DNA of 64,000 nt. It comes from Candidatus Bathyarchaeota archaeon (GTDB lineage: Archaea; Thermoproteota; CALKCG01; B24). A model generated the notes under the pieces. That model was not told the DNA's origin. It saw only the letters and a list, made by a program, of their open reading frames with translations, and ran no database searches. Position numbers and translations under genes: made by a program. Each line of letters starts with the position of its first letter. Position 1 is the stretch's first letter. The DNA lies in assembly GCA_018396755.1 (NCBI GenBank), contig JAGTQM010000004.1, positions 17,099 to 81,098 of the forward strand. Direction: 5' to 3'. Below are positions 4,762-55,646 of the stretch, in pieces.

Positions 4762-6435
4762 TTAATCTGAAGTCTCCTCTTCTTTTTCTCCTGGAGGCTT
4801 TGGCGGTTTTTCTTCTTTAATCTTGCCAGCTGCTATGACATCGTCTATTCTAAGTATGCTTGTTGCTGCTTCAACTGCGGATTTTATGATCTGCTCTTTA
4901 ACGGCTAAAGGCTCTAAAACCTCAAGCTTATGCATGTCTGCAGTTTTTCCGTTTAAAACATCTACACCATACCATATATTGCCTTTTTCATGAATTGTTC
5001 TAAGCTCTACGATGGCGTCGATAGGCTCTAAGCCTGCGTTTTCAGCTAAGACCGACGGTATGACCTCTAAAGCTTCAGCGAACTTGAGGACTGCAAGCTG
5101 CTCTTTACCCGATAAGCCTTCAGACCACCTTCTGATTCTTAAACTCAACTCGAGTTCCGGAGCACCACCACCAGCTACTATGGCAGGGCTTTGTACGGCA
5201 TCTTTAACAACGCAGAGAGCGTCGTGAATACTCCTCTCAGCTTCTTCGACGACCTTATCGGCTCCACCCCTTATTAGGATTGTGACGCTTCTAGGATTCT
5301 TACAACCTTCTATGAAAACCCATTTGTCTTCTCCCACTTTACGCTCTTCAACTAATTTAGCGTAGCCGAGGTCTTCAGGCTTCAAATCCTCAATATCTGT
5401 GACTATTCTAGCCCCTGTAGCTCTTGACATCTTCCTCATGTCTGATTCTTTAACCCTTCTAACGGCTAGTATCCCTCTCTTAGCTAGGAAGTGCTGAGCC
5501 ATATCGTCTATACCCTTCTGACATACTACAACATTAGCACCCGTATCCGCTATTTTATCAACCATATTCTTAAGCATCTTAGTCTCCTGTTCGAGGAAGG
5601 CTCTTATCTGGTCTGGCCTCTCTATCTGGATTTTCGCATCTATCTCAGTCTTCTCTATTTCAAGTGGGCAGTTTAACAGAGCGATTTTAGCCTCCTTAAC
5701 GGTTTTAGGCATACCTGGGTGGACAACTTCCTTATCTAACACTATACCTTGAATAAGCCTTGTAGCTGTTATATCTTCCCCGGCTTTCTTCTCAACCTTT
5801 ATATCGTCTAAGTCGACTCTATAGCCTTCCTCATTCCTCTCAGCCACTTGTAGAATTGCATTCACCACAAGGTCAGCTAGAAACTCCTTGTTTTCAGCTA
5901 TAGCTTTTGTACCCAAAGAGGTCATAGCTACTTTCTTCAAAACTTCCCTATCCTCAGAACAAACCTTAATAGCGATTTCTCTTAAAACTTCAAGGGCTCT
6001 GTTAGCAGCAGCTTCATAGCCTTCAGTTATAACGCTTGGATGAATGTTTAAATCCAGTAAATCTTGAGCTTTTAATAGGAGTTCGCCTGTTAGAACTACT
6101 ACTGAAGTCGTTCCATCACCAACTTCGTTGTCCGTGGCTTTAGCTATTTCAACCATCATTTTAGCCACGGGGTGTTGTACATCCATCTCTTTAAGAATAG
6201 TGGCTCCGTCATTGGTTATCGTAACATCTCCTAGGCTATCTACAATCATCTTATCCATGCCTTTAGGACCCAGGGAAGTTTTAATCATTTCTGCAACTGT
6301 TCTGGCAGCCATTATATTAGTTGATAGAGCTTCCCTACCCCTCGTCCTAGAAGTCCCCTCTTTAAGGATTAATACTGGTTGACCGCTTTCAGTAACAACC
6401 GGTATTGCTTCCATAGATGTCATAAGTTCTATCAC
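4762..6435 (-). CDS. ths: Thermosome subunit (group II chaperonin)
   Basis: [34 protein letters not shown] and a charged GEKEEE tail. GTG at 6435. An in-frame ATG at 6423 is preceded by an AGGTGA Shine-Dalgarno and is probably the true start. Confidence 0.92.
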
Positions 6436-7270: not shown

Positions 7271-8004
7271 ATCTATCTACCTTCTATAATCTCTTATCTT
7301 ACTTATGAGAATATTTTTACTCGATAAATATGTTTCGCTCAAATCAACGAATTGATAGAGCTTAGCCGGTCGTTCCATCATCAGAACTCAGCTCTATATT
7401 AAAAACATCACAGCCCCAAACATATATATTAGAAACTGGTTAAAATTAATTTTACAGCATACTTTCTCTCAAGCTTGAAAATGGTTCAGAGTCTGCTCGC
7501 TGTATTCATCCACAGAAGTGTCGTTAGACAGTGTCGCTCATCATCACCATAATTTCCAATGTCATCACATACTTTTAACTTTTATTGTTCTCTACGTTTA
7601 ACCACTTCCTTCCAAAAAGTTTGTTACGTAATTAAAAACTCACCATCTTCAGAGTACCTTAAATATATTGTCAGATAGGAGGGGTCGAGAAAGATTCTTA
7701 AAAGCCTCATCCTCCAGACCGACCTTGGAAACGAGTTTTGCTGCTAGTTTTCTAACCCTCTCAACCAGTTTAAGAGTTCTTCGGCATCCAATCCTCTTTG
7801 TAAAGAAGCTTTATTCTCCTTGAGGTCTACGATTACGTAGTTATGAGGTTTAATCCCAAGTTTTTCCCTCAAAGTCTTGGAGGGAGCACTATCTACCCCT
7901 TAAGTCCAACTTTCAATCTAAGCTTAACCATAAGTATCACAAAGTATTACTATTAGGTTTAACAACCTCACTCTATTCTATTCATTAAATTAGATACGTA
8001 CAAG

Positions 8005-9417
8005 TTGAAATACCTAATCGCAGTATTTGAGAAGGCTTTTAACCTATTAAAAACTATTCTTTATAGGGGTTTAATGGATTCTAGAGAGAAGATAACTCTT
8101 CTTGGAGGGGGAAGCCCCTTCATCCCATCCATGATTTACGTGATGCTTGAGAATAAAGAGGTTCTCGAGGACAGTGAAGTATGTCTTATGGATATAGACT
8201 CTACACGTCTTCCGTTGCTGACAAAACTAGCTGAGGAATTTTCTAGAAGAGCGAATGTTAAAATGACGTTTACTTGGACTACAGATCCTAGGGAGGCTCT
8301 TGATGGAGCTACGTTTGTTATGCCTGGTTATAGAATAGGCGGTGCGAAGCATATGATGTTTGATTTCGAAATACCGATGAAGTATGGAATATGTGGCGAT
8401 GAGACTGCTGGTCCCGGAGGCACGTTTATGGCTCAATGTACTATTCCGACTACTCTTGAATACTGTAGGATGATAGAGGATTTATGTCCAGATGCTTGGG
8501 TTATAAGCTACGTTAATCCTACGAATTTCGTAGCAGATGCCGTTCGAAGAGTAACGAAGGTGAAGTTTATCGCCATTTGCGACTGCTTCGCCGGCTTCGC
8601 TATGAGAACTCTCCCCGTGTGGTTGAACATGCCTCCGTTCGAGAGGAGATACTGCGTTAATGAAGATATAAGACCGCGTGCAATAGGCGTAAATCATAAC
8701 ACTTGGCTTGTAGACCTTCTAGTTAATGGGGAAGATGGCTATCCCTTACTCAGAAGTATACTTAGAAAATACAAGGAGAGTAGAGAGAAGGGCGTTCCAG
8801 TGTCTTTCCGAGGACCAGACGATTTTACAATGCGTCTCTTTGAAACATACGGCTATGTAAACATCTGTGCATATCACTGTCACATGTACTGGGAGCACAA
8901 TAAAGCTATGGAGATTAGGAAGAGAATACCTGAAGCGTCTCTATTGGGATAGTCTAAGTCGGCTTGGGACTTCGTCAACGAAATGCTTGCTGGCGCCGAC
9001 TACGATTCTAACCGCCCAGAATATTGCTTCCACTTACACCACGCTAGACATGCTATAGGGATAATGGTCAGCATTATCGCCAACGAGGGACGCGAATGGG
9101 GAGGCATAAACTTTCCAAATAATGGCGCCATAGGAAATCTACCTAGGAACGCCATAGTGGAAGGTCTATGTATAGTTGATAGAAGAGGAATAACGCCAAT
9201 AGTCGTAGGAGATCTTCCAAAACCATTACTAGGACTTACACTGCATACTTTAAACTGGCAAGAGCTTACAGTAGATGCAGTTCTTACAGGAGATAAAGCC
9301 CTCTTATATCAAGCTCTTCTGGCATGTCCCTATGTTCACGATATGGAAGCCGCTAGAAAGATAATGAACGATCTTCTAATAGCTCACGCAGAGTTCATGC
9401 CACAGTTTAAGAAATAG
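8005..9417 (+). pseudogene. GH4-family NAD+/Mn2+-dependent glycosidase (alpha-glucosidase/6-phospho-glucosidase-like) interrupted by an in-frame TAG at 8950-8952. The likely true ATG start is at 8074.
   Basis: ORFs 8005..8952 and 8983..9417 are in the same frame. The N-terminal part has the GGGS Rossmann motif and the AICDC region. The C-terminal part has INFPNNGAIGNLP...VGDLP, typical of GH4 C-termini. Alignment to the intact paralog at 47982..49286 is collinear across the stop with no indel. Confidence 0.75.
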
Positions 9418-9578
9418 CCGTAAGCAATTTGAAAAGAGGTCTTCAGAAGATACTATTTGAACGTTATATCTCCAACTATTTTTAAACTCTTTCTATATAT
9501 AGTCGTCTACAAGTTAGAATTGTTAATTTAACCGTTAAATATAAATAATTCCCTAAGATAACTTAATTTACGGTTGAA

Positions 9579-11549
9579 ATGTCAAGGGAAGTAGTTAAGG
9601 AGAAGTTTCCATGGTTGCTTGTGATACTTGTACCGCTCATTTTAGGCTTCATAGGTCCCATATGGCAGTTGCTCATAGGCAGCTTCCCCTACTGGATTGC
9701 TAATGCATTAGGAGAATCTGTCTGCCACATAGGGTTAACTACAGCGCCATTTCTGACTCTTCTTGTAACAGCTCCGCTCTATAGGATTAAGTCTTTAAGA
9801 GACAGACTAGGCATTAAAACTCTAGCATACTTATACATAAGCTCTTTAACGACATCATATTTTATCCACTATCCATGGGCATTATGTACGCACTACATGT
9901 ATGCGCTCAGAATCACATTGCGTGAACTTGCAGATATGGTTATACCGACCTTTATGGCTCCTCCATATGAGGTTGCTATTCTACTATCAGAAGGTGGTCC
10001 AATAGATTGGAGTGCTTGGGCAACACCGATCACTTGGTACTGGCTTCTCAACGTAACTGTAAGCTTTTTCATGTTATCGTTGGCTACTCTATTTAGAAGG
10101 CTCTGGATAGATATTGAGAAGGTTCCGTTTCCACACGCTTTAGTCGCATATGAACTAGCTGAAAATAGTACCGCGGAGAAGGGTTGGAGTAGATTCTTCC
10201 TAATAGGAGTAGTCTTAGGTCTGGCTTTCCAAATTCCAGTAACCCTTACAGGAATATTTCCATGGTTCCCAGACATCTACGGCGTCAACTATAGATCATG
10301 TCCTATGTTGACCCGATGGTTTGGCGGCGATGAACCCATGGGCACTATACCAGGTATGATGAGTATGACGTATAGTCCTACAGCAGTAGCAATAGCTTAT
10401 ATGGTTCCTCTACATGTACAGTTTAGCACGTGGTTCTTTGCCTTAATGTACATAATAGCTGTTCAAATATCCTACTACATGGGCTATTATACTGGAATAA
10501 CGGGTATAGGTACGTGTGGTAGGTACTGGTGCAGTCCATCTCCATCTACAGATCCGCCTCTTAAATTTATGGCTATAGCCGTAGGTGCTCTCATAGCATT
10601 AGGTATTATGCATTTAATACTTAACAGGCGATATCTTACTGAAACGTTTAAAGCAGTGTCCATAGGCTCTGATGAATTTAAAGAAGAGGCTATGAGTTAC
10701 AGAGCATGTTACATGATGCTGGCTATTGCCCTCATAGCTTCCACGGCGTTCTGGATGTGGTCTACTATGTCGTTTTTAGATGCATTGGTTATGGCTCTAA
10801 CGGCTTTTTGCATATGGTATCCAATGAGCCGTCTTTTTGGATTAGCTGGAGCATACTGGAGAAGCGTCGATAAAGGTTTCGTCTTCTTTAGACTTCTCTA
10901 TCCGACGTGTCATGATCCACCGACAACTCGAGAATTCCTAGTGTTCAGAATGTCCACTTTCCTATCAGATACTCCATCATATCCGTGGGGTGGTGCAGCC
11001 ATTTCATCTTTCACCTCTTATAAATTCGCCAGCCTTGCTGGTTTAAGTGCAAGAGACACATTTAAAACTCTAGCCATAGCTTTTCTAATAGCACCTCTAG
11101 TGTCGAACGTTGCACTCGTATGGATTCTACATACAGTAGGCGGTAGACGTATAGGAATATGGTCGAGTTGGTATCTAGGAGGGACTTGGGCCTTAACTGG
11201 CGTATCTACGGGATGGATTACACTACCGGCTCGTGATCCTTGGGTTGAATATAGTATAATAGGTGCTATAGTAGCGATTGTTCTCAGCTTGCTTCACGCT
11301 AGATTCGTATGGTTTCCGCTTGAACCAATCGGCTACATACTGGGTACTACATGTGCTTCAGCCTTATTTGGGCTATGGTCTGCGTTTCTAGTTGCATGGA
11401 TACTTAAAATGATAACTCTACGAATTGGAGGAGCTAAACTCTACGAAGGCTGTGGTGTTCCAATAGCCTCAGGTGCCGTAACAGGATGCATGATAGGAAT
11501 GATACTAGGCGGAATAGTATGGATAACGAGATTCTTCATACCATTCTAA
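9579..11549 (+). CDS. Large polytopic membrane protein, uncharacterised family (paralog A)
   Basis: 656 aa and very hydrophobic, with many predicted TM helices. Conserved motifs shared with paralogs at 52762..54765 and 61237..63248: IDIEKVPFPHA, FPWFPD, YYTGITG, CGRYWCSPSPSTDPPLKF, and C-terminal RIGGAKLYEG. Confidence 0.8.
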   Translation: MSREVVKEKFPWLLVILVPLILGFIGPIWQLLIGSFPYWIANALGESVCHIGLTTAPFLTLLVTAPLYRIKSLRDRLGIKTLAYLYISSLTTSYFIHYPWALCTHYMYALRITLRELADMVIPTFMAPPYEVAILLSEGGPIDWSAWATPITWYWLLNVTVSFFMLSLATLFRRLWIDIEKVPFPHALVAYELAENSTAEKGWSRFFLIGVVLGLAFQIPVTLTGIFPWFPDIYGVNYRSCPMLTRWFGGDEPMGTIPGMMSMTYSPTAVAIAYMVPLHVQFSTWFFALMYIIAVQISYYMGYYTGITGIGTCGRYWCSPSPSTDPPLKFMAIAVGALIALGIMHLILNRRYLTETFKAVSIGSDEFKEEAMSYRACYMMLAIALIASTAFWMWSTMSFLDALVMALTAFCIWYPMSRLFGLAGAYWRSVDKGFVFFRLLYPTCHDPPTTREFLVFRMSTFLSDTPSYPWGGAAISSFTSYKFASLAGLSARDTFKTLAIAFLIAPLVSNVALVWILHTVGGRRIGIWSSWYLGGTWALTGVSTGWITLPARDPWVEYSIIGAIVAIVLSLLHARFVWFPLEPIGYILGTTCASALFGLWSAFLVAWILKMITLRIGGAKLYEGCGVPIASGAVTGCMIGMILGGIVWITRFFIPF

Positions 11550-11656
11550 ATAAACCCCCACCATTTTTCCTCCTGTAACCTCTACGTAAGATGATTTTTT
11601 AATGTAAATTCACGGTAAAACCTTTAAAGGTCTTACATTAAATTTTCAAATCAAAA

Positions 11657-14600
11657 TTGTCCACTAGAAGTTTTAACTCTAAAAATGATAGAGCCGTAAA
11701 GGTTTGGGAAGAGCATGTTGTTAAGCCCACCTACAAGATATTAAGGGAGGACAATCTTCCATATTTTATGAGTAAACACTACCCTTATACTAGGCTAGAC
11801 TTCTTCGATACAAAACCCACCCCGGTCAATTATAGGGAAGTCGTTATGGAGAATGAATACCTCAAAATATCCGTTAGACCGGAGCTTGGCGCCCGCCTAT
11901 TCTCAGCATTTGATAAAATATCTGAAAATCAAGTATTCCACTACGTTGACACAATTAGACCCTTCTTAATAGCTCAAAGGGGTGCATGGATTGCAGGAGG
12001 ATTAGAGTTTAACCTATGCCAACATCCAAGCCATACAGCAGACAATTTTTCACCAGTCGATTACGTATACGTCGTACATGAAGATGGAAGCGCTTCAATA
12101 TTGATAGGCAGCCTCATACTGTACACCAACGTAAGATACTTGGTCGAAATGACTCTAAGACCTAAAACGGCTAGGATAGATATTCGCGTAAAAACTTTCA
12201 ACACGGACCTTATTCCTCAGAGGTACTACTTCTGGTCTAACGCCGCCGTCTCTGCAAGCGAAAAGCTTCGCTTCTTCTACCCGGGCTCTCTTTCAAACAT
12301 AGGTAAATTCCCGGCGAATGAGGAAGGCGTTGACTTAAGCTGGTATGTGAACTACGATAGACCATTAAGCATATTCATCATAGATTCTGAAGAAGACTTT
12401 TTCGCAGCGTATGACTATAAGTCTTCCAGAGGACTGGTTCACTATGCAGATCACAATATTATCCTCGGGAAGAAGATATTCAGCTGGGGGCTATCTGAAG
12501 ATGGTTTATTCTGGAAAAACCTCCTATCGGATAAAGATATACCTTACGTAGAGATTCAAAGTGGGCGTTTTCTAACGCAGGGGATTGTTGAGCTTATAGA
12601 TCCACTGAGCTTCGAATCATGGGAAGAATACTGGTATCCAGTTCGAGATATGAATGGGATAACATATGCCAATGAAAAAGCAGCAATCTACGTGAATGAG
12701 GAAAATAAAGCTGAGCGTAGGCTTCAGATCAATGTATGCTCAACCATATCATGTGAAGCTAAACTCGTATTGTATGCAGACGGAGAGAAATTCTATGAAG
12801 AACTAGTAGAGCTTCTCCCTGAGAAGACGCTTAAGAGGAATATTAAAGCGCCGCCCGGAAAATTGCTGCTTAAAATAATTGACTTAAACGGAAGGGAAGT
12901 GATTTCATGGGACTTTCGAAGTTACAAGATAAAACCGCATGAAGCCCCATCTTGGATCAGAGAAGTCCCGAATTGGAATTGGAATAATGCCGTTGAAGAG
13001 CTTTGGCTGAAGGGGGTTGAATCTGCGAAGAGGGAGACGTTTCTTAAAGCCGAAAGATACTTCACGTCTTCTTTGGAGAAGGATGGTGTCTTCTCTAAAA
13101 GCTTATGTTCTCTAGGTCTTTTACGTTATAGATCGGGTCTATACGATGAAGCCGCATCCCTCTTTCAGAGGGCATTGACGAGAAATCCATACAATGAAGA
13201 GGCGCGTTATTACCTCGGTTTAACTATGCTTGTTTTAAATAATCTTGATGGAGCTGAGAGAGAACTCTGGAGAGTTTCCTCGAAGATAGGCTACAGATCA
13301 CTAGCTCTATACCTTCTAGGCATCATAAGGATGAGGTTAAAAGCATATGATGATGCCGAAAATCTACTGCGAAGGTCGATACAAGAATGCGGTTACAATT
13401 TGAAGGCTCTATGCGCTCTCTCTATGAGTCTTAGAAAACAGGGAAAGCGTGAGGAAGCGTGGAAGGTTTTAGAGGAAGCGTATCATATAATGCCTCTTGA
13501 CTACTTGGTACTTGCGGAAAGGTATCTTCTATCTTCTGATGAGGAGTTTAAAAGGGTGGTTTTCACAAGTTTCCAGAAGGTTTTGGAGGTGTCAAAAGGT
13601 TACATGTTTGCTGGCTTGTTTGAAGATTCACTGACGATATTGAAAGCAGCGCTGGACTATGGTATACGTAATCCGCTAATCTACTATTACATAGGATATT
13701 CTTATAAGAAGATTGGTAGGTTTAACGATGCTATAGACTACTACAAATACGGAAGTAGAGAAAACATCGATTATATTTTTCCGCACAGGTTAGAGGATTT
13801 GGAGGTTCTCAAAGATATCGTTAGTAGTCTTCCATCGGATCCAACACCGCATTATTTACTCGGCAACGTCTTATTCTATTTGGGACGATTTAAAGAAGGC
13901 CTCGAGAAGTGGGAGAGGGCTTACATGCTTGGATTGAGAAGTTCTGTACTTTCACGTAATATTGGATATGCTTACGCTGTCTTGACATTAGACTATAATA
14001 GGGCTATTAACATGTACTTGGAGGCTATAAGACTTGAACCTGAAAATCATAAACTCTATGTGGAGCTGGATGAGATTTACTCAAAGATCGGTTACTACAC
14101 TGAACGTGTTAAATTGCTAGAGAATACGCCTCAGGAAGCCAGGCATAGCGCACTGCTTGCTAGACTTGCCTCAGCATACGTTGACGCTGGAGAATACGAG
14201 AAGGCTCTAAATATTCTGTATAACACATTTTTCGAGCCTATGGAAGGTTACTATGGGTTTTGGGAAATTTACGTTGATGCACTTATGGCTAAAGGATTTA
14301 CACTTTTCAAGAACTGTATGTTTGAAGATGCGGCGAAATGCTTCATAGAAGCTATGAGCTATCCCAAAAACCTCGGTATAGGTGCACCGCATCTAAAATA
14401 TAGACAAGATTTAATGCAACTCTACTATGTCGGTTTAGTATATGAAAGACTCGGAGAATTTTCTACTGCGCAAAGAATATGGTCTAATGCTCTTCAACGA
14501 TTTTCTGGGGACCATGAGAATCGCATATTTAAAGCGTTGATTTTACGAAAACTGGGAAAAATCGAAGAATCTGAGCTTATGCTTAGAAAAGTAGTTGACG

Positions 14601-14845
14601 AAGCCAAGTCAGAATTGGATAGGATGTCTGAGGGATTAGGCGATGAAAATAGCTACTTAGTATATGTACATGGAGCTGACGTTTCATTTGCAAACTTACA
14701 TTATGTGTTGGGGCTTGGATACATTGCTCGAGGAATGGTGGAAGCAGGGGTCGAAGAGATAGATAAATCGTTGAAATTGACCAAGGTTATTAGACACGCG
14801 CGATGGATTAAAGATGGTATGATTCCAATATCGTCGCTTCTCTAG
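11657..14845 (+). CDS. Large DUF5107-like protein with C-terminal TPR repeats
   Basis: 1062 aa. The N-terminal region (VKVWEEHVVKPTY...) resembles the DUF5107 family. The C-terminal half is rich in TPR-like Y/A/L repeats. TTG start at 11657, with no nearby ATG. Confidence 0.5.
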   Translation: MSTRSFNSKNDRAVKVWEEHVVKPTYKILREDNLPYFMSKHYPYTRLDFFDTKPTPVNYREVVMENEYLKISVRPELGARLFSAFDKISENQVFHYVDTIRPFLIAQRGAWIAGGLEFNLCQHPSHTADNFSPVDYVYVVHEDGSASILIGSLILYTNVRYLVEMTLRPKTARIDIRVKTFNTDLIPQRYYFWSNAAVSASEKLRFFYPGSLSNIGKFPANEEGVDLSWYVNYDRPLSIFIIDSEEDFFAAYDYKSSRGLVHYADHNIILGKKIFSWGLSEDGLFWKNLLSDKDIPYVEIQSGRFLTQGIVELIDPLSFESWEEYWYPVRDMNGITYANEKAAIYVNEENKAERRLQINVCSTISCEAKLVLYADGEKFYEELVELLPEKTLKRNIKAPPGKLLLKIIDLNGREVISWDFRSYKIKPHEAPSWIREVPNWNWNNAVEELWLKGVESAKRETFLKAERYFTSSLEKDGVFSKSLCSLGLLRYRSGLYDEAASLFQRALTRNPYNEEARYYLGLTMLVLNNLDGAERELWRVSSKIGYRSLALYLLGIIRMRLKAYDDAENLLRRSIQECGYNLKALCALSMSLRKQGKREEAWKVLEEAYHIMPLDYLVLAERYLLSSDEEFKRVVFTSFQKVLEVSKGYMFAGLFEDSLTILKAALDYGIRNPLIYYYIGYSYKKIGRFNDAIDYYKYGSRENIDYIFPHRLEDLEVLKDIVSSLPSDPTPHYLLGNVLFYLGRFKEGLEKWERAYMLGLRSSVLSRNIGYAYAVLTLDYNRAINMYLEAIRLEPENHKLYVELDEIYSKIGYYTERVKLLENTPQEARHSALLARLASAYVDAGEYEKALNILYNTFFEPMEGYYGFWEIYVDALMAKGFTLFKNCMFEDAAKCFIEAMSYPKNLGIGAPHLKYRQDLMQLYYVGLVYERLGEFSTAQRIWSNALQRFSGDHENRIFKALILRKLGKIEESELMLRKVVDEAKSELDRMSEGLGDENSYLVYVHGADVSFANLHYVLGLGYIARGMVEAGVEEIDKSLKLTKVIRHARWIKDGMIPISSLL

Positions 14846-14902
14846 GTATGTAGATTTCAAGTAAGTATCCGTTCAATTATTCTACGATCTTCTAGTACTA
14901 CC

Positions 14903-15199
14903 TTAACTACGTTTAAACCGTAGATTTATTGGCTTTCCCTCTGATAGGATCTTCTCCGGTATTCTGTTTTTCCACTTTTCAAGAAACTCTAAGTCTTCTT
15001 TCAAATTTCTAAGCTCATCTGGAAGCATTTCAGGAATTTCATCACGTATTGGATAAAATCTATTACACTTAGAACACCATATAAGACCTTCTACGATTTC
15101 ACCGTCTTCCTTTTCTTCAAATACGAAGAGCTCAAGAGGATGGTGTTTGTCGATAGGGCATGCCAATATATCCATAAGTCTTCTCTTCAACAGATTCAC
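14903..15199 (-). CDS. Trm112-family small zinc-ribbon protein (methyltransferase activator-like)
   Basis: LMDILACPIDKH...CSKCNRFYPI, Trm112/DUF343-like. Its start overlaps the stop of the upstream Gfo oxidoreductase. Confidence 0.6.
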   Translation of the reverse strand: MNLLKRRLMDILACPIDKHHPLELFVFEEKEDGEIVEGLIWCSKCNRFYPIRDEIPEMLPDELRNLKEDLEFLEKWKNRIPEKILSEGKPINLRFKRS

Positions 15200-16131
15200 C
15201 TCAAATAAATCCTTTCACCTTTATAACCAGATTTAAGTATTGCCTCACATATCTTAAGTGCTTCCACTCCATCATCAGCCGTTAGAAGTAGGCTCTCCTT
15301 ACCTAAAACAGCATTGATAAAGTGTTTAAGCTCCCTCATTAAAGGCTCTTCCCACTTAACAGTCGGCTGAAGAACTTTTTCAGAATCTTCTATTAAAACT
15401 TCTTGAGATATGTAATCTAGCGAAACAGTAGCCTCGCTTCCAGTGATTATCAGAGACCTGATCCTGCGGGGTGTAAGCCAGTTGGCCTCTATAAACCCTG
15501 TAACTTCACTTTCAAAGTGGAGAATCGCTTCAGCGTAGTCTTCAAATCTATGCCTGAGACTGCCAACCTTGGCGTAAACGCTCTCAACATCGCCTATGAG
15601 GAAACGCATGACATCTAAATCGTGTATAGCAGAATCTTTAACAACACCCACGTCTCCTATGCGTTCAGGCCATCTAGAAACTCTTCTAGCAGTTATAAGT
15701 ATAATTCGGCCGAGTGCACCGTTATCTATCAATGTCTTAATTCTCCCCACGGCTGGGTTAAAGCGTTCTATATGGCCTGGCATGAGTCTAAGTCCTAAAC
15801 TGTAAGCTAAATCTCGAAGCTTCTCAGCCTCCTCTAAAGTGCTACATAAAGGCTTCTCCGTTAAACTGTGTACACCATGGTTTAAAACCTCAGATGTTAT
15901 CTCAAAATGCGTGGTCGTTGGTGTGCATATACTTACAGCATCTGGCTTTTCAACAAGAAGCATCTCCTTAAAATCACTGTATGCTCTACATCCATATCTC
16001 TTAGCTACGCTTTTAGATCTTTCACGGTCTATATCGCATACTGCAACAAGTTCAACGTCCTCTATCTCGCTATAGACTCTAGCATGGTTCCTACCCCAGA
16101 AACCTACACCTATGACCGCTACCTTAGTCAA
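15196..16131 (-). CDS. Gfo/Idh/MocA-family NAD(P)-dependent oxidoreductase (WbpB-like UDP-sugar 3-dehydrogenase candidate)
   Basis: VAVIGVGFWGRNHARVY Rossmann motif. Probable TTG start at 16131, giving MTKVAVIGVGFWG. It overlaps the stop of the upstream dehydrogenase in a TTGACTAA arrangement. The ORF-track GTG at 16185 would add an atypical 18 aa extension. Confidence 0.75.
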   Translation of the reverse strand: MTKVAVIGVGFWGRNHARVYSEIEDVELVAVCDIDRERSKSVAKRYGCRAYSDFKEMLLVEKPDAVSICTPTTTHFEITSEVLNHGVHSLTEKPLCSTLEEAEKLRDLAYSLGLRLMPGHIERFNPAVGRIKTLIDNGALGRIILITARRVSRWPERIGDVGVVKDSAIHDLDVMRFLIGDVESVYAKVGSLRHRFEDYAEAILHFESEVTGFIEANWLTPRRIRSLIITGSEATVSLDYISQEVLIEDSEKVLQPTVKWEEPLMRELKHFINAVLGKESLLLTADDGVEALKICEAILKSGYKGERIYLR

Positions 16132-17500
16132 CAGAATCAGCTCCCACGCCGACGTATATAAGGTTGGCTTTTTCAACTTCTTCACGGTTAAATATTCTGC
16201 CGAAGTCTACTATGGCTATAGTCTTACTCTCAGGGCTTCTAAAGTCGCTTAAGCTTATGTTTTTAAATACATCGTGTGGTGTAGCTATGATTACACAATC
16301 AACATCTCTGAGAGTCCTCTTAAGGCTTAAAGACGTTTTAAAGCCCATACCTCTAATTTCATCGCGTGTAAAATATGGATCATACACCACCACTTCAGCT
16401 CCCCTCTTCAGTAGCTCATTTGCTAATTTAAGACTATAGGAGTTTCTAGTATTTTTAACATTTGGTTTAAAACTTAACCCAAGTACAAGTATCCTAGAGC
16501 GTCTAAGAGGTTTCCCAAGCCTTCTTAAAGCCTTAATCACAAGTGCATAACCGTGTTTAAGGAGGATATCATTAACTTTTAAAGTTACTTTGAGCGTACG
16601 TAAGCTGAAATTAACGTTTTCAGCTGAATTCTGCAAGAGTTGAGCATCCTTAGGCAGATGACCACCCACACCTATGCTAGGTTTAAGAAGATGGCAGAAT
16701 GGCTGAGTTGTGGCAGCCTTCAATACTTCAACATAATCTACACCTATTTTTTCACATAAGACCGCTAGCTCATGGCTAATAACCAGTGCGGCAAACCGAT
16801 AGAAGTTTTCAAAAAGTTTGACAGTTTCAGCTGTTTTAATATCCCTAACTCTAACAATCCCCCCTTCAACAACTGTTTTCAAAACAGCCTCACTAATTGC
16901 AAGGCTTTTAGGTCCAACTGCTCCAACAACTCTAGGATAACTTACAAGATCCCTCAGCAATGATCCCTCCGCTCCTCTGAGGGGGCTATAGGAAAAACCG
17001 AAGTCTTGCTCAGCCTTTAAATTAGACAATGCCTCAATTCTCTCTTTAACCACTTCTTCAGTTACACCTGGACCAGTTGTACTGCTTTGAATAATAAGAC
17101 TACCCCTCGTCATACACGTACCTAAATCTTCTGCAATTTTACGGAGGGGGAAGTAGTCTGGAATACCGAGTTGACTTACTGAAGCCGATATGACAATCAT
17201 GATTATCTCAGAATCGTTAACAGCGGATTTGACATCTGTAGTTGGGTGAAATTTTTCCATCCTAAGCACTTTCTGAAGAAGTGCTCGAAGTCCCGGTTCA
17301 GAGTTTGGAATTACACCACGCTTAAGCTTGTCAACAAGTTCTACGTTTGCGTCTACTCCATAAACTTCAACCCCTTTATCCGCGTAAAGGCAAGCTAACG
17401 GTAGACCCATAACTCCACAGCCTATTACGCTCAGTTTAAGATTTCCTTTAGTAAGCATCTCAGGAATTTCCTCAGGATTTAGATCCATTATATTAGTCAT
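16124..17500 (-). CDS. NDP-sugar dehydrogenase (UDP-glucose/UDP-GlcNAc/UDP-ManNAc 6-dehydrogenase family, WbpA/WecC-like)
   Basis: LSVIGCGVMGLPLACLYADKGVEVYGVD N-terminal NAD-binding fold. 458 aa, typical of the UDP-Glc/GDP-Man dehydrogenase family. Confidence 0.8.
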   Translation of the reverse strand: MTNIMDLNPEEIPEMLTKGNLKLSVIGCGVMGLPLACLYADKGVEVYGVDANVELVDKLKRGVIPNSEPGLRALLQKVLRMEKFHPTTDVKSAVNDSEIIMIVISASVSQLGIPDYFPLRKIAEDLGTCMTRGSLIIQSSTTGPGVTEEVVKERIEALSNLKAEQDFGFSYSPLRGAEGSLLRDLVSYPRVVGAVGPKSLAISEAVLKTVVEGGIVRVRDIKTAETVKLFENFYRFAALVISHELAVLCEKIGVDYVEVLKAATTQPFCHLLKPSIGVGGHLPKDAQLLQNSAENVNFSLRTLKVTLKVNDILLKHGYALVIKALRRLGKPLRRSRILVLGLSFKPNVKNTRNSYSLKLANELLKRGAEVVVYDPYFTRDEIRGMGFKTSLSLKRTLRDVDCVIIATPHDVFKNISLSDFRSPESKTIAIVDFGRIFNREEVEKANLIYVGVGADSVD

Positions 17501-17591
17501 AAAGGACGACCTCTTCGCGTATGTATTAGTACTCTAAAATTCTAACTATGAGAATTTAAATTATACCCTCTAAGGATTGTTGTGGTTCTAA

Positions 17592-45111: not shown

Positions 45112-46203
45112 TTGAAAACCCTCCTCTATAAAGAAGACTGGGAAAGAGTTTCTGAAACCTATGAAGCTTGGTGGGAAGGTGAACTGACCAGACCAATAAT
45201 ACATTTAACGTATATACCGCCCAATATAGACCTTGTCGATTACTCTCTGACCTTAAGTTGGGCTTTTATGAGATATCACCCGGAGAAGGCTTTAGAAGCC
45301 CTCTTCGAATACTTCTCCAAAACAATATTCATGTGTGAAGCTTATCCCAACGTATTCATAAATATAGGACCCGGTGCCTTATCTGCTTTCCTAGGTGCGA
45401 ATGTAAATTTCAACCCCAGTGCGGAAACATCCTGGTTTAAAGGATCGTTTTCTTTAGATGATCTTCTTAATGTTGAATTAAACCCTGAGAATAAGTGGTG
45501 GCGTTATGTGATCGAATGTACTGGGAAGGCTTCAGCCATGTGCAGGGATAAAGCCATAGTCGCCTTTACAGACCTTTTAGACGTACTTACAAGTCTAGTT
45601 CATCTTAGAGGTGGAGCGTCGAAATTGATTAAAGACGTTTTTCTTAACCGCGTCAAACTGATGAAGGTTTTAAACCATCTGCATCAAATCTGGTTTTACT
45701 GTTTCGAAAAAATCTCAGAGCTAATTGATACGAGTACTTATGGTTTTTCAAATTGGGCTGCATTATGGAGTAGGCGTAAATCGTTTATACTTCAATGTGA
45801 CTTTAGCGTATATCTCTCACCCAAAATATTCGACGAATTCATACTTCCCCTAGTAGTTGAGGAGTGTAGATTCTTTGAGAGAAGCTTCTGGCATTTAGAC
45901 GGACCTCTTGAAATCCCCCACCTAGATAAACTCTTAAACATAAGCGAGCTTAACGGTATACAATGGATTCCTGGAGCTGGAAACCCGGATCCAGGTGACA
46001 ACTACTGGATTCCAATGTATAGAAAAATACAGAGAGCTGGGAAGCTCATCCAGCTCCCCGGAATCCCTATATCTAAAATAATTCCAGTCTTAGATCAAAT
46101 ATCGCCTAAAGGTGTTTTCATTCAAACTTCAACTCTGAGCCTCGAAGTTACTGAAAACTTCTGCAGAAAAATGTCTGAGAAATACGGTGTCCGACTTAAG
46201 TGA
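45112..46203 (+). CDS. Hypothetical protein
   Basis: 363 aa. TTG start. No confident motif. Confidence 0.35.
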   Translation: MKTLLYKEDWERVSETYEAWWEGELTRPIIHLTYIPPNIDLVDYSLTLSWAFMRYHPEKALEALFEYFSKTIFMCEAYPNVFINIGPGALSAFLGANVNFNPSAETSWFKGSFSLDDLLNVELNPENKWWRYVIECTGKASAMCRDKAIVAFTDLLDVLTSLVHLRGGASKLIKDVFLNRVKLMKVLNHLHQIWFYCFEKISELIDTSTYGFSNWAALWSRRKSFILQCDFSVYLSPKIFDEFILPLVVEECRFFERSFWHLDGPLEIPHLDKLLNISELNGIQWIPGAGNPDPGDNYWIPMYRKIQRAGKLIQLPGIPISKIIPVLDQISPKGVFIQTSTLSLEVTENFCRKMSEKYGVRLK

Positions 46204-47981: not shown

Positions 47982-49286
47982 CTAAGAAAATCCTTTAAGG
48001 TATTTTTCTTCAGCTTTAAACATTTCATCTACCATTGTTCTTATCTCATCTATAGTAAGCATTGCACTAGTCAGTGGATCTACCAGTATTGCGTGAAATA
48101 CCAGCTCTTTACTCTTCTCTAAGACGGCTCTAGTTGCAAGCTCTTGAACATTTATATTCATTCTATTTAAAGCTACACATTGCGGAGGTAGCTTGCCAAC
48201 ATAGCAAGGATGTATCCCAGTTTTATCTACAAGACAAGGAACTTCAACGCAGCAGCCATATGGAAGATTTACAATCAATCCGGTATTCCTAACGTTTCCG
48301 TAGATTAAGCTAGGCATACCCGTTTCCATCGAATATATTATTGTAGAACAGTATTCTGCACTTCTACGTATAGGTATTTTCTCAGGGCTCTCAACCAATT
48401 TTCTAAACGCCTCATCCTCTTTCCCTCTATCCTCCATAAATTGGATGCGCCTTAAACCCCTCCCCAATTTAAACTTCTCCATTACATCTTGTCTTTTTCT
48501 GAAATAGGGCAAGTACTCAGACAGATGGTGGCTTGACTCGCTTGGATAATAGCCTACGGCTTTGAAAACCTCTATTCTAACAAGATCCCTTCCAGCAGAA
48601 CTCTTGTAAAAATCAGGATCCTCGATCTTCTTCCTTAAAATGGGGTAGGCGTCTTTTCCACGCCATTTAAACTCTAGAAACCAACTCATGTGATTTATTC
48701 CAGCTGCACGGTACGATATTTCTGTTGGAGGAACATTTATGTAATTTGCGAGGGTGTACGCGGTACCTTGAACACTATGGCATAATCCTACCACGTTTAC
48801 TTTAGTGGCTTCATATACACTCCAACATATTATAGCCATGGGATTCGTATAATTCATCAGAAGAGCATCGGGACATAATTCCTCCATATCGTAGCATATG
48901 TCTAGTATAGCTGAAGCATTTTTCAAACCGTAGAATACACCTCCAGGTCCAACAGTATCTCCTACAGCCTGATCTACTCCATATTTTAAAGGTATCTCCA
49001 AATCGAGCTTCGTAGCTTCAAGGCCGCCTACTCTAATAGACGTTACAACATAATCCGCCCCCTCTAAAGCCTCTCTACGATCGGTCGTAGCCTCTATCTT
49101 AGTTTTAAAACCCCACTGATCCACGAGTTTTCTCGCGAAAGCTTCTGTGAGACTCAGCCTATCTTTATCTATGTCTACAAGGCTAATGGTGCAATCTCTA
49201 AGCTCGGGATACGACAGTATGTCTGTTATGAGATTTTGACCGAATACATGGCTTCCAGCGCCTATGAGAACGACTTTAAACGTCAT
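47982..49286 (-). CDS. GH4-family glycosidase (NAD+/Mn2+-dependent alpha-glucosidase/alpha-galactosidase-like), intact
   Basis: KVVLIGAGSHVFG Rossmann motif, NYTNPM, GLCHSVQGT (Cys-His metal site), and C-terminal NLPYGCCVEVPC...GKLPP. Confidence 0.8.
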   Translation of the reverse strand: MTFKVVLIGAGSHVFGQNLITDILSYPELRDCTISLVDIDKDRLSLTEAFARKLVDQWGFKTKIEATTDRREALEGADYVVTSIRVGGLEATKLDLEIPLKYGVDQAVGDTVGPGGVFYGLKNASAILDICYDMEELCPDALLMNYTNPMAIICWSVYEATKVNVVGLCHSVQGTAYTLANYINVPPTEISYRAAGINHMSWFLEFKWRGKDAYPILRKKIEDPDFYKSSAGRDLVRIEVFKAVGYYPSESSHHLSEYLPYFRKRQDVMEKFKLGRGLRRIQFMEDRGKEDEAFRKLVESPEKIPIRRSAEYCSTIIYSMETGMPSLIYGNVRNTGLIVNLPYGCCVEVPCLVDKTGIHPCYVGKLPPQCVALNRMNINVQELATRAVLEKSKELVFHAILVDPLTSAMLTIDEIRTMVDEMFKAEEKYLKGFS

Positions 49287-49353
49287 GTCAACCCCTTAAA
49301 TATATGAAGGACTTAGGTATAAATGCTTAGGCTATTGATTATAGTGGTCGGAG

Positions 49354-50733
49354 GTGTTAATTAAATTGGAGAGTATGATATGGCGGGTTTTGAACGAGAT
49401 CCCCGATTTCAAGGAGTTTATGAATGTTGATGAGCTCAACGCGAGCGCCAGAGAACTAGCGTCTAAACATCCAGATAGAGTTTCCATGTTTAAGATAGGT
49501 GAGGCAAGGAATGGAGAACCAATCAATTGCCTTAAAATAGGTTCTGGGGAATTGACGGCTTTGCTCTTCGCTTTTCCACATCCCAACGAGCCGATTGGAA
49601 GTATGACATTGGAATATCTTTCTTGGAGGCTGTCTGTAGATGACACCTTTAGAAGTAAGATGAATACAACATGGTATATCATAAAGTGCGTAGATCCTTT
49701 TGGAGCTAGATTAAACGAGGGTTGGTTTAAAGGAGATTGGTCTCTGAGAAAATATGCTCTAAACTACTACAGGCCTCCAGGATATAAGCAGATTGAATGG
49801 GCTTTTCCAGTAGAGTATAAAACGTTGAAGTTTGATAAGCCTATTCCTGAGACCCAGGCTTTAATGAATTTGATCAACGAAATCAAACCCGACTATGTGA
49901 GTTCCCTTCATAACGCTGGTTTCTGTGGAGCTTACTTCTATCTTTCAGATCCAATTCCAGATGTGTATGATAAACTCCACGTGGTTACATCTAAGTTTGA
50001 TATCCCGCTTCACCTAGGTGAGCCTGAAGTACCCTATGCGAATAAGTTTGCCGACGCCATCTTCAAGATGCCAACAGTAGTTGAGGAGTACGAGTATTTA
50101 GCTGAGCATCTTAAGAAGGATCCATCTGAAGTGATAAGAAGCGGTGCTAGTAGCGATGAATACGTGAAAAGGATCAATAAAAATGCTTTAACGGTCGTAT
50201 GCGAGGTCCCCTACATATACGACGATAGAATTGCTAATACCACTCCAGTTGGTATTAAACGTAGAGATATTCTACTTTTAGAAGCTGAAAAAACCAGGCG
50301 GCAACTTATAGAGCTTAAAAAGAGACTAGAAACTATTAAATATTGTGTTGACGAATCATCTCCATTCTATGAAGCTTTATCGGAGTTTATAAGGATAGGT
50401 CTTGAATCTGTAAAGGCTAGGAAGAACTGGGCGAAGAAAGATCCATCTACCACCCGTCAGGCTACAGTTTCAGAATTATTCGATAGTATGGTTGCTAGGA
50501 TCTACTTTTACGGAATGCTTAGACTCGGTCTATTCTATAGACTAACCTGCGAAAAACCCGAAGAACCAATCCTCAAGGAGCACTGCAAGTGGAGTTTAAA
50601 GAAGATAGAACTTATGTGTAAAGAGTTTATGGATATGTCGAATTACATAGTGATACCCGTTAGAAACTTAGTGGGTGTTCAATTGGGGTCGATACTTTAT
50701 ACGTTAATGGCTAAATCGTCAATTTCCAACTAG
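49354..50733 (+). CDS. M14-like zinc carboxypeptidase-fold protein
   Basis: FPHPNEPIG (HxxE zinc motif) and downstream SLHNAGF (third His ligand). A strong GGAGGTG Shine-Dalgarno at 49350-49356. Alternative starts TTG 49366 and ATG 49375. Confidence 0.45.
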   Translation: MLIKLESMIWRVLNEIPDFKEFMNVDELNASARELASKHPDRVSMFKIGEARNGEPINCLKIGSGELTALLFAFPHPNEPIGSMTLEYLSWRLSVDDTFRSKMNTTWYIIKCVDPFGARLNEGWFKGDWSLRKYALNYYRPPGYKQIEWAFPVEYKTLKFDKPIPETQALMNLINEIKPDYVSSLHNAGFCGAYFYLSDPIPDVYDKLHVVTSKFDIPLHLGEPEVPYANKFADAIFKMPTVVEEYEYLAEHLKKDPSEVIRSGASSDEYVKRINKNALTVVCEVPYIYDDRIANTTPVGIKRRDILLLEAEKTRRQLIELKKRLETIKYCVDESSPFYEALSEFIRIGLESVKARKNWAKKDPSTTRQATVSELFDSMVARIYFYGMLRLGLFYRLTCEKPEEPILKEHCKWSLKKIELMCKEFMDMSNYIVIPVRNLVGVQLGSILYTLMAKSSISN

Positions 50734-50735
50734 CA

Positions 50736-52685: not shown

Positions 52686-52761
52686 CGCCTACACCTTTCT
52701 ATTCTCTTTGTTAGAAAGACTTATAATGTTTTAAATTGAAAAGGGAATTTGAGGCGGGAAA

Positions 52762-54765: not shown

Positions 54766-54821
54766 ACCCCTATATTTTTTATAAGTAGAAAATGCATTAA
54801 ATAGATTCGGGATTTTCCACT

Positions 54822-55646
54822 ATGAATGTTGGTAAAAGGTTAAGGTTTAGGAGGTTATTCACCCATAGGAGAAGCGTGATAGTCGCAATAGACCACGGAT
54901 CTTACTGGGGTTATATAGCTGGTCTTGAGAATCCGAATCGCGTAGTTGAGAAGTTGAGTGAAACTTGTGCTGACGCTATAGCTGCAACGCCTTTTACGTT
55001 GAAAAGAGTATGCGATTCTATAGGGAATCTAGCAGCCGTAGCTAGAATCGATAGTAGTGTTACCGTTTACGATGATATGGAGAACGATATGCCGATTACA
55101 ACGGTAGAGCATTTAGTAGCTATGGGGGTTGATGCCGCTATGACTATGTGCTATTTTGGAGGGGCAAAGTCGTCTGAGCAACAGAGGAAGTTAGGTATGC
55201 TTGCAACGGAATGTGAAAAACTTGGTCTACCGCTAATAGTTGAAGCTCTCCCAGCTAAACTAATTGATTACCACTTCAGCAGAGAAAAAGCCCGTGGAAA
55301 AGCTTTAACAGACTTCATAACTATTGAAGATTTACTTGTTGTAAGTAGAGTTAGTGCAGAACTTGGAGCAGATGCTATTAAAACATACTATCTAGGATCT
55401 ATAGAAGAGTATAAAAAGGTCGTTGAAAATGCCAATATACCCATATTAGTCCTTGGAGGACCTAAAGTCAAAACCTTCGAAGAATACTTAGAGCTGGTTA
55501 AAAACGCTATGGATGCTGGAGCTAAAGGAGTTGTAGTGGGTAGAAACGTATGGCAAAGGGAAGACATTAAAAGCACTATGAAGGTAATATGTGCAATAGT
55601 ACATGAGGGTAAAGATGTTGAGTATGCTCGAAGATTTCTAAAGTAA
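54822..55646 (+). CDS. Class I aldolase, DhnA/FbaB-type (fructose-bisphosphate aldolase / ADH synthase family)
   Basis: VIVAIDHG (substrate-binding), AIKTYY (Schiff-base Lys region), LVLGGPK. 274 aa. Confidence 0.55.
   Translation: MNVGKRLRFRRLFTHRRSVIVAIDHGSYWGYIAGLENPNRVVEKLSETCADAIAATPFTLKRVCDSIGNLAAVARIDSSVTVYDDMENDMPITTVEHLVAMGVDAAMTMCYFGGAKSSEQQRKLGMLATECEKLGLPLIVEALPAKLIDYHFSREKARGKALTDFITIEDLLVVSRVSAELGADAIKTYYLGSIEEYKKVVENANIPILVLGGPKVKTFEEYLELVKNAMDAGAKGVVVGRNVWQREDIKSTMKVICAIVHEGKDVEYARRFLK

Follow-up and report, generated by a model that had tools for sequence, protein, structure and literature searches.

A probable clade-specific and evolutionarily fluid carbohydrate cluster of Bathyarchaeia comprising a family 4 glycosidase, a DUF6785/DUF6784 membrane protein and a DUF5107-TPR protein

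A 64,000-nucleotide stretch of contig JAGTQM010000004.1 from a Candidatus Bathyarchaeota archaeon (hereafter the window) carries on its forward strand a run of three genes. In order, these encode a glycoside hydrolase family 4 (GH4) glycosidase, a membrane protein with the Pfam domains DUF6785 and DUF6784, and a 1062-residue protein in which a DUF5107 domain is followed by tetratricopeptide repeats (TPR). An original prediction, made from the sequence, described three co-directional genes with gaps of 161 and 107 nt and an interrupted GH4 gene, and the coordinates of the open reading frames (ORFs) agree with it (spacers at 9418-9578 and 11550-11656). It further proposed a single transcription unit and functional module in which the third protein is a scaffold or binding partner for the membrane protein rather than an enzyme. 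We consider it somewhat more probable that the locus is a clade-specific, evolutionarily fluid cluster for carbohydrate uptake and catabolism in Bathyarchaeia, rather than an operon of fixed composition or a complex of membrane protein and scaffold. All three genes of the window are under purifying selection, with ratios of nonsynonymous to synonymous substitution rates (dN/dS) of 0.04-0.15. Features and coordinates are collected in Table 1.

Co-localisation of the two protein families in other genomes, on which the original prediction had itself staked the pairing, was surveyed from both sides. From the DUF5107-TPR side, 80 species-representative loci with flanks of up to 10 kb were used, 65 of them informative in having at least 2.2 kb of upstream sequence; from the DUF6785 side there were 80 metagenome loci, 67 of them informative in having at least 1.5 kb downstream. 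Hidden Markov model (HMM) matches to DUF6785 occur in three of the 80 DUF5107-TPR loci, namely two from close relatives of the window (L011 and L012; L numbers designate the loci compared) and one from Brockarchaeota (L016), where the DUF6785 gene lies 9 kb from the DUF5107-TPR gene on the opposite strand. Adjacency is confined to two of the 65 informative loci, both from close relatives, and DUF5107 was found in none of the 80 DUF6785 loci, including the 67 informative ones. The proposed module therefore stands as a cassette within a narrow clade of Bathyarchaeia (the window, L011, and decayed copies in L001 and L012), and no conserved module extends beyond it, an outcome that the original prediction had itself named as refuting it.

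Elsewhere the two families keep other company. Distant archaeal homologues of the DUF5107-TPR protein, in whose Pfam-annotated contexts no adjacent DUF6785 gene was found, lie with GH5, a 743-residue GH42-like protein and an Opp-type ABC transporter, with galactokinase and an NTP-transferase, or with GH38, PfkB and DeoC. Bacterial homologues are accompanied by DeoR, MFS transporters, aldo-keto reductases, GH42/DUF4832-like proteins, NAD-epimerases, GH20, GMC oxidoreductase and NTP-transferase. DUF6785 neighbourhoods include GH29, GH116, GH2 and GH4, the last in three of the 80 loci. A separate pair in L141 has GH4 directly upstream of DUF6785 on the same strand, with a membrane protein 36% identical, and GH4 is also found near a second DUF6785 gene of the window (paralogue B), near DUF6785 in L114, and as fragments in L010. 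The pairing of GH4 with DUF6785 thus has some independent support, while the link to DUF5107-TPR has none outside the clade.

At this one locus, sibling genomes amount to a clean natural experiment in how genes are gained, lost and pseudogenised. Synteny downstream of the three genes is common to all relatives and comprises genes for Trm112, a GFO/IDH/MocA oxidoreductase, a UDP-sugar dehydrogenase, DUF354, PHP and MetRS, the first three of which are convergent with the DUF5107-TPR gene in the window. Against this common background the cassette itself varies (Table 1). Alignment by blastn matches window positions 8025-11572 to L091 8455-11994 and window positions 14899-17571 to L091 12017-14686, and L092 shows the same pattern, so that both keep the membrane gene at a site from which the DUF5107-TPR gene has been cleanly left out. 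Two diverged cassettes with complementary decay are present in L001, L002 and L012. Copy 1 consists of a C-terminal fragment of the GH4 gene, an intact membrane gene and a C-terminal fragment of the TPR region, followed by a PIN/MazE pair; copy 2 consists of a frameshifted GH4 gene, a 2.24-kb deletion, a C-terminal fragment of the membrane gene and an intact DUF5107-TPR gene. The deletion removes the equivalent of window positions 9048-11287 and fuses the C-terminal region of GH4 to the last 80 codons of the membrane gene. In L001 the membrane gene and the DUF5107-TPR gene thus each survive intact in a single copy, 3 kb apart and separated by an opposite-strand toxin-antitoxin pair, with no intact GH4. 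The arrangements in L091 and L092 and in L001 lend no support to an obligate pairing of the two proteins' genes.

The three-gene order is old enough to have left its mark on two diverged cassettes and so is no isolated accident. Because it recurs in L011 and in the remnants of L001, L002 and L012, the adjacency is above chance; co-direction alone would mean little. The linkage is nonetheless confined to a genus-level clade, within which each gene undergoes gain, loss and pseudogenisation independently of the others, and the genes need not adjoin. A loose functional link is plausible from the recurrence of the order in this clade.

The same turnover could be read as a neighbourhood accident, in which genes of no shared pathway have met at a recombination-prone, island-like spot beside a toxin-antitoxin pair. 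The locus is a rearrangement hot-spot whose upstream flank differs in every relative, and whole-gene insertions or deletions, duplications, other deletions and a PIN/MazE pair or its remnant are all found there. No partner of DUF5107-TPR is universal, its commonest neighbour family being present in at most 16 of 83 loci, and no operator motif is shared by the regions before the three genes. We judge this explanation unlikely, however, given that the order has persisted in two cassettes with membrane genes of only 81% DNA identity, that the GH4-DUF6785 pairing recurs independently in L141, near paralogue B, in L010 and in L114, and that in other genomes, too, the surroundings of both DUF families are carbohydrate-catabolic.

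The cassette does border a toxin-antitoxin locus in several genomes. An intact PIN/MazE pair (L001:7893-8577, and likewise in L002 and L012) occupies the place of a decayed MazE/AbrB-type remnant in the window, and another such pair adjoins DUF6785 in L010. The remnant marks the upstream edge of the cassette.

The third protein has the composition that was originally described for it, a beta-rich N-terminal domain and a long TPR array. Pfam model DUF5107 (PF17128) matches residues 40-329 with an E-value of 1.6e-55 (188.7 bits, cut-off 24.4). TPR_2 (103 bits) and TPR_1 (80 bits) are among many TPR models that match after it, and this part of the protein also matches the TPRs of MamA, PilW, LapB-type proteins and OGT. 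An AlphaFold2 (AF2) model built from 50 homologues (pLDDT 93.4, pTM 0.90) has strands over residues 15-418, beginning with the segment VKVWEEHVV..., and helical repeats over residues 446-1062. The best matches of the protein are named Candidatus Bathyarchaeia, yet the family is large and widespread. The full architecture of about 1050 residues is kept in Bathyarchaeia, Brockarchaeota, Thermofilum-like archaea, Acidobacteriota, Planctomycetota, Latescibacterota, Armatimonadota and Firmicutes, and in at least 120 homologues; a search with the N-terminal domain returned 2518 clusters at 50% identity from Archaea and Bacteria. The fused architecture predominates among them, and of the best 150 representatives the majority are 950-1130 residues long. 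N-termini resembling signal peptides (for example MKFLLQCTSVLVAALCLAVPTLAAPQ) were found in 46 of 120 homologues, all of them bacterial and mostly from Acidobacteriota/Terriglobia, whereas archaeal and some bacterial homologues begin without one. By these N-termini, the side of the membrane on which the proteins act seems to differ between lineages. The dN/dS of the gene is 0.12-0.15 (0.146).

Conservation is concentrated in the beta domain. Among 50 sequences, 38 alignment columns are invariant, and 32 of these, mostly polar or aromatic, fall within residues 59-338, including Y59, E65, N66, K87, W111, E117, H126, N182, E299 and Q301. In the helical part E863 and the pair Y902-P903 are invariant, and F859 and P861 nearly so, all on non-helical loops. 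The only solved homologue of the N-terminal domain is PDB entry 5cd6 (BDI_1685 of Parabacteroides distasonis, a structural-genomics entry annotated as a 'TPR-domain containing protein'), which is found both by profile (E = 8e-49 over residues 16-325) and by Foldseek (E = 6e-22) and has the same order of a DUF5107 beta domain followed by TPR helices. It differs in being 580 rather than 1062 residues long, with a much shorter helical part, and is only about 19% identical. Even at this distance, the core polar residues E65, N66, K87, R108, E117, H126, N182, W193, N195, Y252, K273, E299 and Q301 are shared.

Several faint similarities point from the DUF5107 domain toward the aldose 1-epimerase superfamily (GalM, DUF4432 and the C-terminal domain of GH38), with which it shares an all-beta unit of about 300 residues. 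After 5cd6, the N-domain profile finds three PDB aldose 1-epimerases at E-values of 0.08-0.1, individually below significance, to which the opening strand region of the domain ('lENeyL..v.P..G.r..s') aligns. One family member matches GH38C weakly (E = 0.11). Alignment of the profile by hhalign to a DUF4432-like ORF gives a probability of 95.6% and an E-value of 1.2e-08, with correspondence of a GGiE..P..H motif. Near the end of the domain lies a hydrophobic-x-E-x-Q motif (YVEIQ), which we take to recall the catalytic glutamate motif of mutarotases. Pfam Aldose_epim does not match the DUF5107-TPR protein, a Pfam scan of twelve N-terminal domains at E-values up to 10 returned DUF5107 plus isolated weak matches only, and classical mutarotases are stand-alone proteins of about 340 residues that lack the fused 600-residue TPR solenoid. 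The indications that the domain is mutarotase-like are weak but convergent.

These findings bear on the proposal that the three genes form one operon whose third product is a non-enzymatic TPR scaffold docking on the DUF6785 membrane protein. In its favour, the genes share a strand and are separated by modest gaps, TPR arrays often serve for contacts between proteins and those of this protein match the TPRs listed above, and the membrane gene precedes the DUF5107-TPR gene in the window, in L011 and in the L001 remnants of two cassettes. However, the co-localisation survey weakens the proposal: adjacency is missing from nearly all informative loci, siblings keep the membrane gene with no partner at the locus, and paralogue B has no DUF5107 neighbour. 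A dedicated partner of a membrane protein is also hard to reconcile with a family of which many members look secreted or periplasmic while the archaeal ones look cytoplasmic, with roughly 30 invariant and mostly polar residues clustered in the beta domain, several of them kept in the Parabacteroides homologue, with the weak links to the mutarotase superfamily, or with carbohydrate-catabolic neighbourhoods lacking DUF6785. A promoter-like block before the membrane gene, described below, is moreover conserved independently of GH4. We regard the operon-and-scaffold proposal as very unlikely. Because of the conservation pattern, the distribution, the variable localisation and the genomic contexts, we prefer a carbohydrate-binding or -converting enzyme to a dedicated scaffold, and take the DUF5107-TPR protein to be, more probably, soluble and active on carbohydrate.

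A more specific form of this idea, which we put forward tentatively and hold to be rather doubtful, is that DUF5107-TPR proteins form an unrecognised family of carbohydrate-active enzymes. The active site would lie in the mutarotase-like beta-sandwich, packed rigidly on the TPR solenoid, with the F859-x-P-x-E-G and Y902-P903 loops contributing, and in this clade the enzyme would process the product of the OPT-fold importer and GH4. With its very confident model and enzyme-like conservation, the family is made directly testable by the list of residues and contexts given here.

More particular associations of DUF5107-TPR were considered and rejected. Links to two families would have pointed to 'oxidative glycoside cleavage', but GFO/IDH/MocA oxidoreductases occur in 14 of 83 DUF5107-TPR loci against 20 of 80 DUF6785 loci and the xylose-isomerase-like family in 6 of 83 against 10 of 80, so that both are as common around DUF6785 and neither link is specific. 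Galactokinase, as an indicator of a galactose (Leloir) link, is present in only 2 of 83. Two arrangements were noted in small numbers of loci. The 743-residue protein, with its weak GH42 match, is convergent with and directly 3' of DUF5107-TPR in two Bathyarchaeia genomes and one Brockarchaeota genome (L003:13232-15463 and L007:13243-15474, both on the minus strand, and L014), and this neighbourhood may span lineages. In L005 (13452-15710; Bathyarchaeia, galactokinase present) and in L171 (11148-12533; Firmicutes), the next gene after DUF5107-TPR, in the same orientation, encodes a sugar-1-phosphate nucleotidyltransferase, which hints, in a few loci only, at a context of monosaccharide activation.

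The membrane protein of the cassette (paralogue A) matches Pfam DUF6785 (E = 4e-34, 118.5 bits, cut-off 25) and then DUF6784 (1.2e-14, 54.8 bits, cut-off 26.4). It also matches the OPT model (PF03169) below threshold (17.3 bits against a cut-off of 25.8, E = 0.0019), with residues 149-643 aligned to positions 104-618 of the 623-position profile. A PDB sequence search found no match. The AF2 model from 50 homologues (pLDDT 91.4, pTM 0.92) has a sole real structural match in the PDB by Foldseek, the barley transporter HvYS1 (7wst/7wsr), which it resembles over about 600 residues (E = 2.5e-08, TM-score 0.63-0.69) and to which it is only 12% identical; all others have TM-scores below 0.2. We conclude that the protein is predicted with high confidence to adopt the fold of OPT/Yellow-Stripe transporters while being filed under DUF6785/DUF6784 and not under Pfam OPT. 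On the strength of this model, DUF6785/DUF6784, whose members come mostly from Bathyarchaeia and Brockarchaeota, may now be described as a predicted OPT/Yellow-Stripe-fold transporter family of these archaea. The dN/dS of the membrane gene is 0.04-0.05 (0.053).

Paralogue B, which is 38% identical to paralogue A and likewise matches both DUF models above their cut-offs, lies within a second sugar-related cluster of the window (47982-55646). An intact second GH4 gene, GH4-B, is part of that cluster, 3.5 kb from paralogue B, and each membrane paralogue therefore has a GH4 gene nearby.

Motifs in the two spacers bear on the claim of a single transcription unit. In an alignment of the window, L011, L091, L001 copy 1 and L092, a promoter-like block 29-50 nt before the membrane ATG is nearly invariant and its TATA-like box is followed by a GGTGGA resembling a Shine-Dalgarno (SD) sequence. 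The DNA farther upstream cannot be aligned, and in L092 and L001 copy 1 the gene found there is a different one and not GH4. Because the block is kept whatever gene lies upstream, the membrane gene seems to be served by a promoter of its own. The next spacer holds two T tracts and, about 31 nt ahead of the TTG start of the DUF5107-TPR gene, a TTTAAA; L011 and both L001 copies share these elements. Since the segment missing from L091 and L092 takes in this upstream region, it fits a view of the DUF5107-TPR gene as an autonomous unit of gene plus promoter. Co-direction and modest gaps agree with one transcription unit. The conserved motifs before the second and third genes, which are suggestive only, speak against it, though read-through co-transcription may still occur.

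The palindrome TTAACNGTTAA was considered as a shared operator for the three genes and rejected, as its single exact copy in the window is the one before the membrane gene; near-matches (9 against 4.2 expected) are not enriched. Together with the TATA block it is a candidate operator for an archaeal regulator. A scan for sigma-70 promoters and intrinsic terminators gave counts like those in shuffled sequence, the consensus being a bacterial one that is inapplicable to an archaeon, and an Rfam search of both intergenic gaps found no riboswitch or leader.

The first gene of the run, GH4-A, matches Glyco_hydro_4 (PF02056; E = 1.1e-45, 155.9 bits, gathering cut-off 23.2), and Glyco_hydro_4C (PF11975) is split by the stop codon into matches to profile positions 2-75 and 114-209 (30.1 and 88.8 bits, cut-off 24.1; E = 6e-07 and 6e-25). 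Like the alpha-galactosidase MelA and the alpha-glucosidase AglA it has both Pfam GH4 domains, and the N-terminal GGGS dinucleotide-binding motif can be read in its sequence. It is far below the equivalog cut-offs of these enzymes: the closest NCBIfam model, the alpha-galactosidase subfamily PRK15076, scores 160 bits against a cut-off of 486, and the AglA model matches below threshold only. The maximal ORF runs from a TTG at 8005 to 8952 and resumes in the same frame at 8953-9417 beyond a single TAG. The true start is probably ATG 8074, not TTG 8005, because the intact L091 orthologue aligns from that residue and has a stop before it.

The full GH4-A frame of about 445 residues is uninterrupted in L011 and L091. 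Recoding of the TAG was rejected as an explanation, given that close relatives have Trp (TGG) at that position. Only one base, A in place of G, separates the stop from the TGG of L011, and no other lesion is present in the gene, whose dN/dS of 0.075 against L011 is near the 0.033 between the two intact orthologues. On this comparison the lesion would be either very recent or an assembly error. The gene may not be truly interrupted: the TAG could stem from faulty sequencing or assembly, or be a minority allele within the population of the metagenome-assembled genome, and the cassette would then be fully functional in this organism. In our estimation this is an appreciable possibility, though one short of an even chance. 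The same gene has undergone real decay in close relatives, with the frameshifts and the 2.24-kb deletion in L001 and L012 and the fragments in L010, and a fresh pseudogene is for this reason equally plausible; the intact GH4-B in the window could moreover relax selection on GH4-A. GH4-B is a possible back-up in the window genome.

Reading the locus as a carbohydrate cluster, we envisage that the OPT-fold transporter would bring in a small solute, possibly a glycoside, which a cytoplasmic GH4 enzyme would cleave (GH4-A where it is intact, GH4-B in the window genome). The DUF5107-TPR protein would be a soluble carbohydrate-binding or -converting enzyme with its pocket in the mutarotase-like beta domain, to which the TPR solenoid would be rigidly attached as an accessory, and each gene would be driven by its own TATA-type promoter. 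Substrates and activities are inferred. Like other prokaryotic sugar-utilisation clusters, this one brings together a transporter with a glycosidase of the cytoplasm and a protein that putatively converts sugars. Genes for GFO/IDH/MocA, UDP-sugar dehydrogenase and a TIM barrel of xylose-isomerase-like type add to the sugar-related content of the surroundings. It differs from them in that the cassette has no regulator gene, the transporter is OPT-like rather than of the ABC or MFS type, the gene set is confined to a narrow clade, and the promoters are likely separate. As a module the locus is ordinary, a lineage-specific sugar-related cluster made from catalogued but uncharacterised families, and what is most worth following from it is the DUF5107-TPR family, with its enzyme-like features, and the pair formed by DUF6785 and URO-D.

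The URO-D pair is among several points that weigh against a carbohydrate cluster. A URO-D-family (PF01208) gene adjoins DUF6785 in 32 of 80 loci; the two mostly share a strand and lie less than 300 bp apart, and URO-D is sometimes present in two or three copies (for example L107:12049-13167, L129:12048-13118 and L131:9319-10482). This pairing is far stronger than the link of DUF6785 to DUF5107 or to GH4, and the URO-D neighbour is a better lead to the DUF6785 substrate than DUF5107. OPT-family transporters classically import peptides or metal chelates. Because of this, and because the commonest neighbour of DUF6785 is URO-D and not a glycosidase, a sugar as its substrate is uncertain. We found no functional literature on DUF5107, DUF6785/DUF6784, 5CD6 or BDI_1685. 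That two diverged cassettes share one gene order speaks for some selective advantage in linkage, which could include physical interaction, and the absence of DUF5107-TPR from L091 and L092 refers to this locus. The promoter and terminator calls, finally, are motif-based only and as such suggestive. In the window itself a weak URO-D-like ORF is found at 45112-46203, not adjacent to a DUF6785 gene.

Table 1. Features of the window, with the gene content of the corresponding locus in related genomes
Feature	Position	Strand	Basis or remarks
Thermosome gene	4762-6435	-	Marks the window as archaeal
Decayed MazE/AbrB-type antitoxin remnant	7680-7935	-	At least four in-frame stops (MVKLRLKVGLKG-stop-IVLPPRL-stop...); aligns with intact PIN/MazE region of L001
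GH4-A, family 4 (NAD+/Mn2+-type) glycosidase gene, one nonsense codon	8074-9417	+	Pfam; orthologues intact in L011 and L091
In-frame TAG splitting GH4-A	8950-8952	+	Window ...SLLG-stop-SKSAW, L011 ...SLLGWSKSAW (TGG, Trp); L091 uninterrupted
Palindrome TTTAAC-C-GTTAAA (TTTAACCGTTAAA)	9527-9539	+	Abuts TATA-like box
Promoter-like block upstream of membrane gene	9529-9550	+	TAAC(C/A)GTTAAA(T/C)ATAAATAATT, nearly invariant in five loci
TATA-like AAATATAAATAA	9537-9548	+	About 36 nt before membrane ATG
SD-like GGTTGA before membrane ATG	9572-9577	+	
Membrane paralogue A, DUF6785+DUF6784, predicted OPT/Yellow-Stripe-like secondary-transporter fold	9579-11549	+	Pfam, AF2, Foldseek
T5 tract between membrane and DUF5107-TPR genes	11564-11568	+	
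T6 tract between membrane and DUF5107-TPR genes	11595-11600	+	
TATA-like TTTAAA between membrane and DUF5107-TPR genes	11623-11628	+	
Segment with whole DUF5107-TPR gene and upstream region	11573-14898		Missing in L091 and L092; blastn
DUF5107-TPR protein, 1062 residues, no signal peptide	11657-14845	+	Pfam, AF2; TTG start
Mutarotase-like beta domain (predicted), residues about 14-330	11696-12646	+	AF2/Pfam
Small Ig-like beta-sandwich (predicted), residues 342-418	12680-12910	+	AF2
TPR-like solenoid (predicted), about 30 helices, residues 446-1062	12992-14842	+	AF2
Trm112-like, GFO/IDH/MocA and UDP-glucose/GDP-mannose dehydrogenase-family block	14903-17500	-	Overlapping ORF ends; synteny anchor in all relatives
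GH4-B, second intact GH4 gene	47982-49286	-	Pfam GH4 2.4e-59, GH4C 1.8e-59; 32% identical to GH4-A
M14-like peptidase near paralogue B	49354-50733		
AXE1/glucuronoyl-esterase-like hydrolase beside paralogue B	50736-52685	-	
Membrane paralogue B (DUF6785+DUF6784)	52762-54765	+	Pfam; 38% identical to paralogue A; no DUF5107 gene nearby
DeoC aldolase beside paralogue B	54822-55646	+	
L011: GH4 (intact), membrane gene, DUF5107-TPR			92-95% amino-acid identity to window
L091: GH4 (intact), membrane gene, Trm112			Window 11573-14898 cleanly missing
L092 / L008: radical-SAM gene, membrane gene, Trm112			Neither GH4 nor DUF5107-TPR at locus
L001 / L002 / L012: two diverged cassettes with complementary decay	L001:4600-13200		

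Upstream of the cassette, an ORF-free stretch of 730 nt (7271-8004) contains two sub-threshold Rfam matches to C/D-box small RNAs, both on the minus strand: one to sR1 at 7360-7415 (17 bits, E = 0.73) and one to sR2 at 7526-7572 (24 bits, E = 0.056). These were the only such matches, the intergenic gaps having none. The sR2 match has UGAUGA-type C and C' boxes, and a clear D box was not found in it. On the other side of the cassette, the minus-strand block at 14903-17500 resembles a separate, tight operon.

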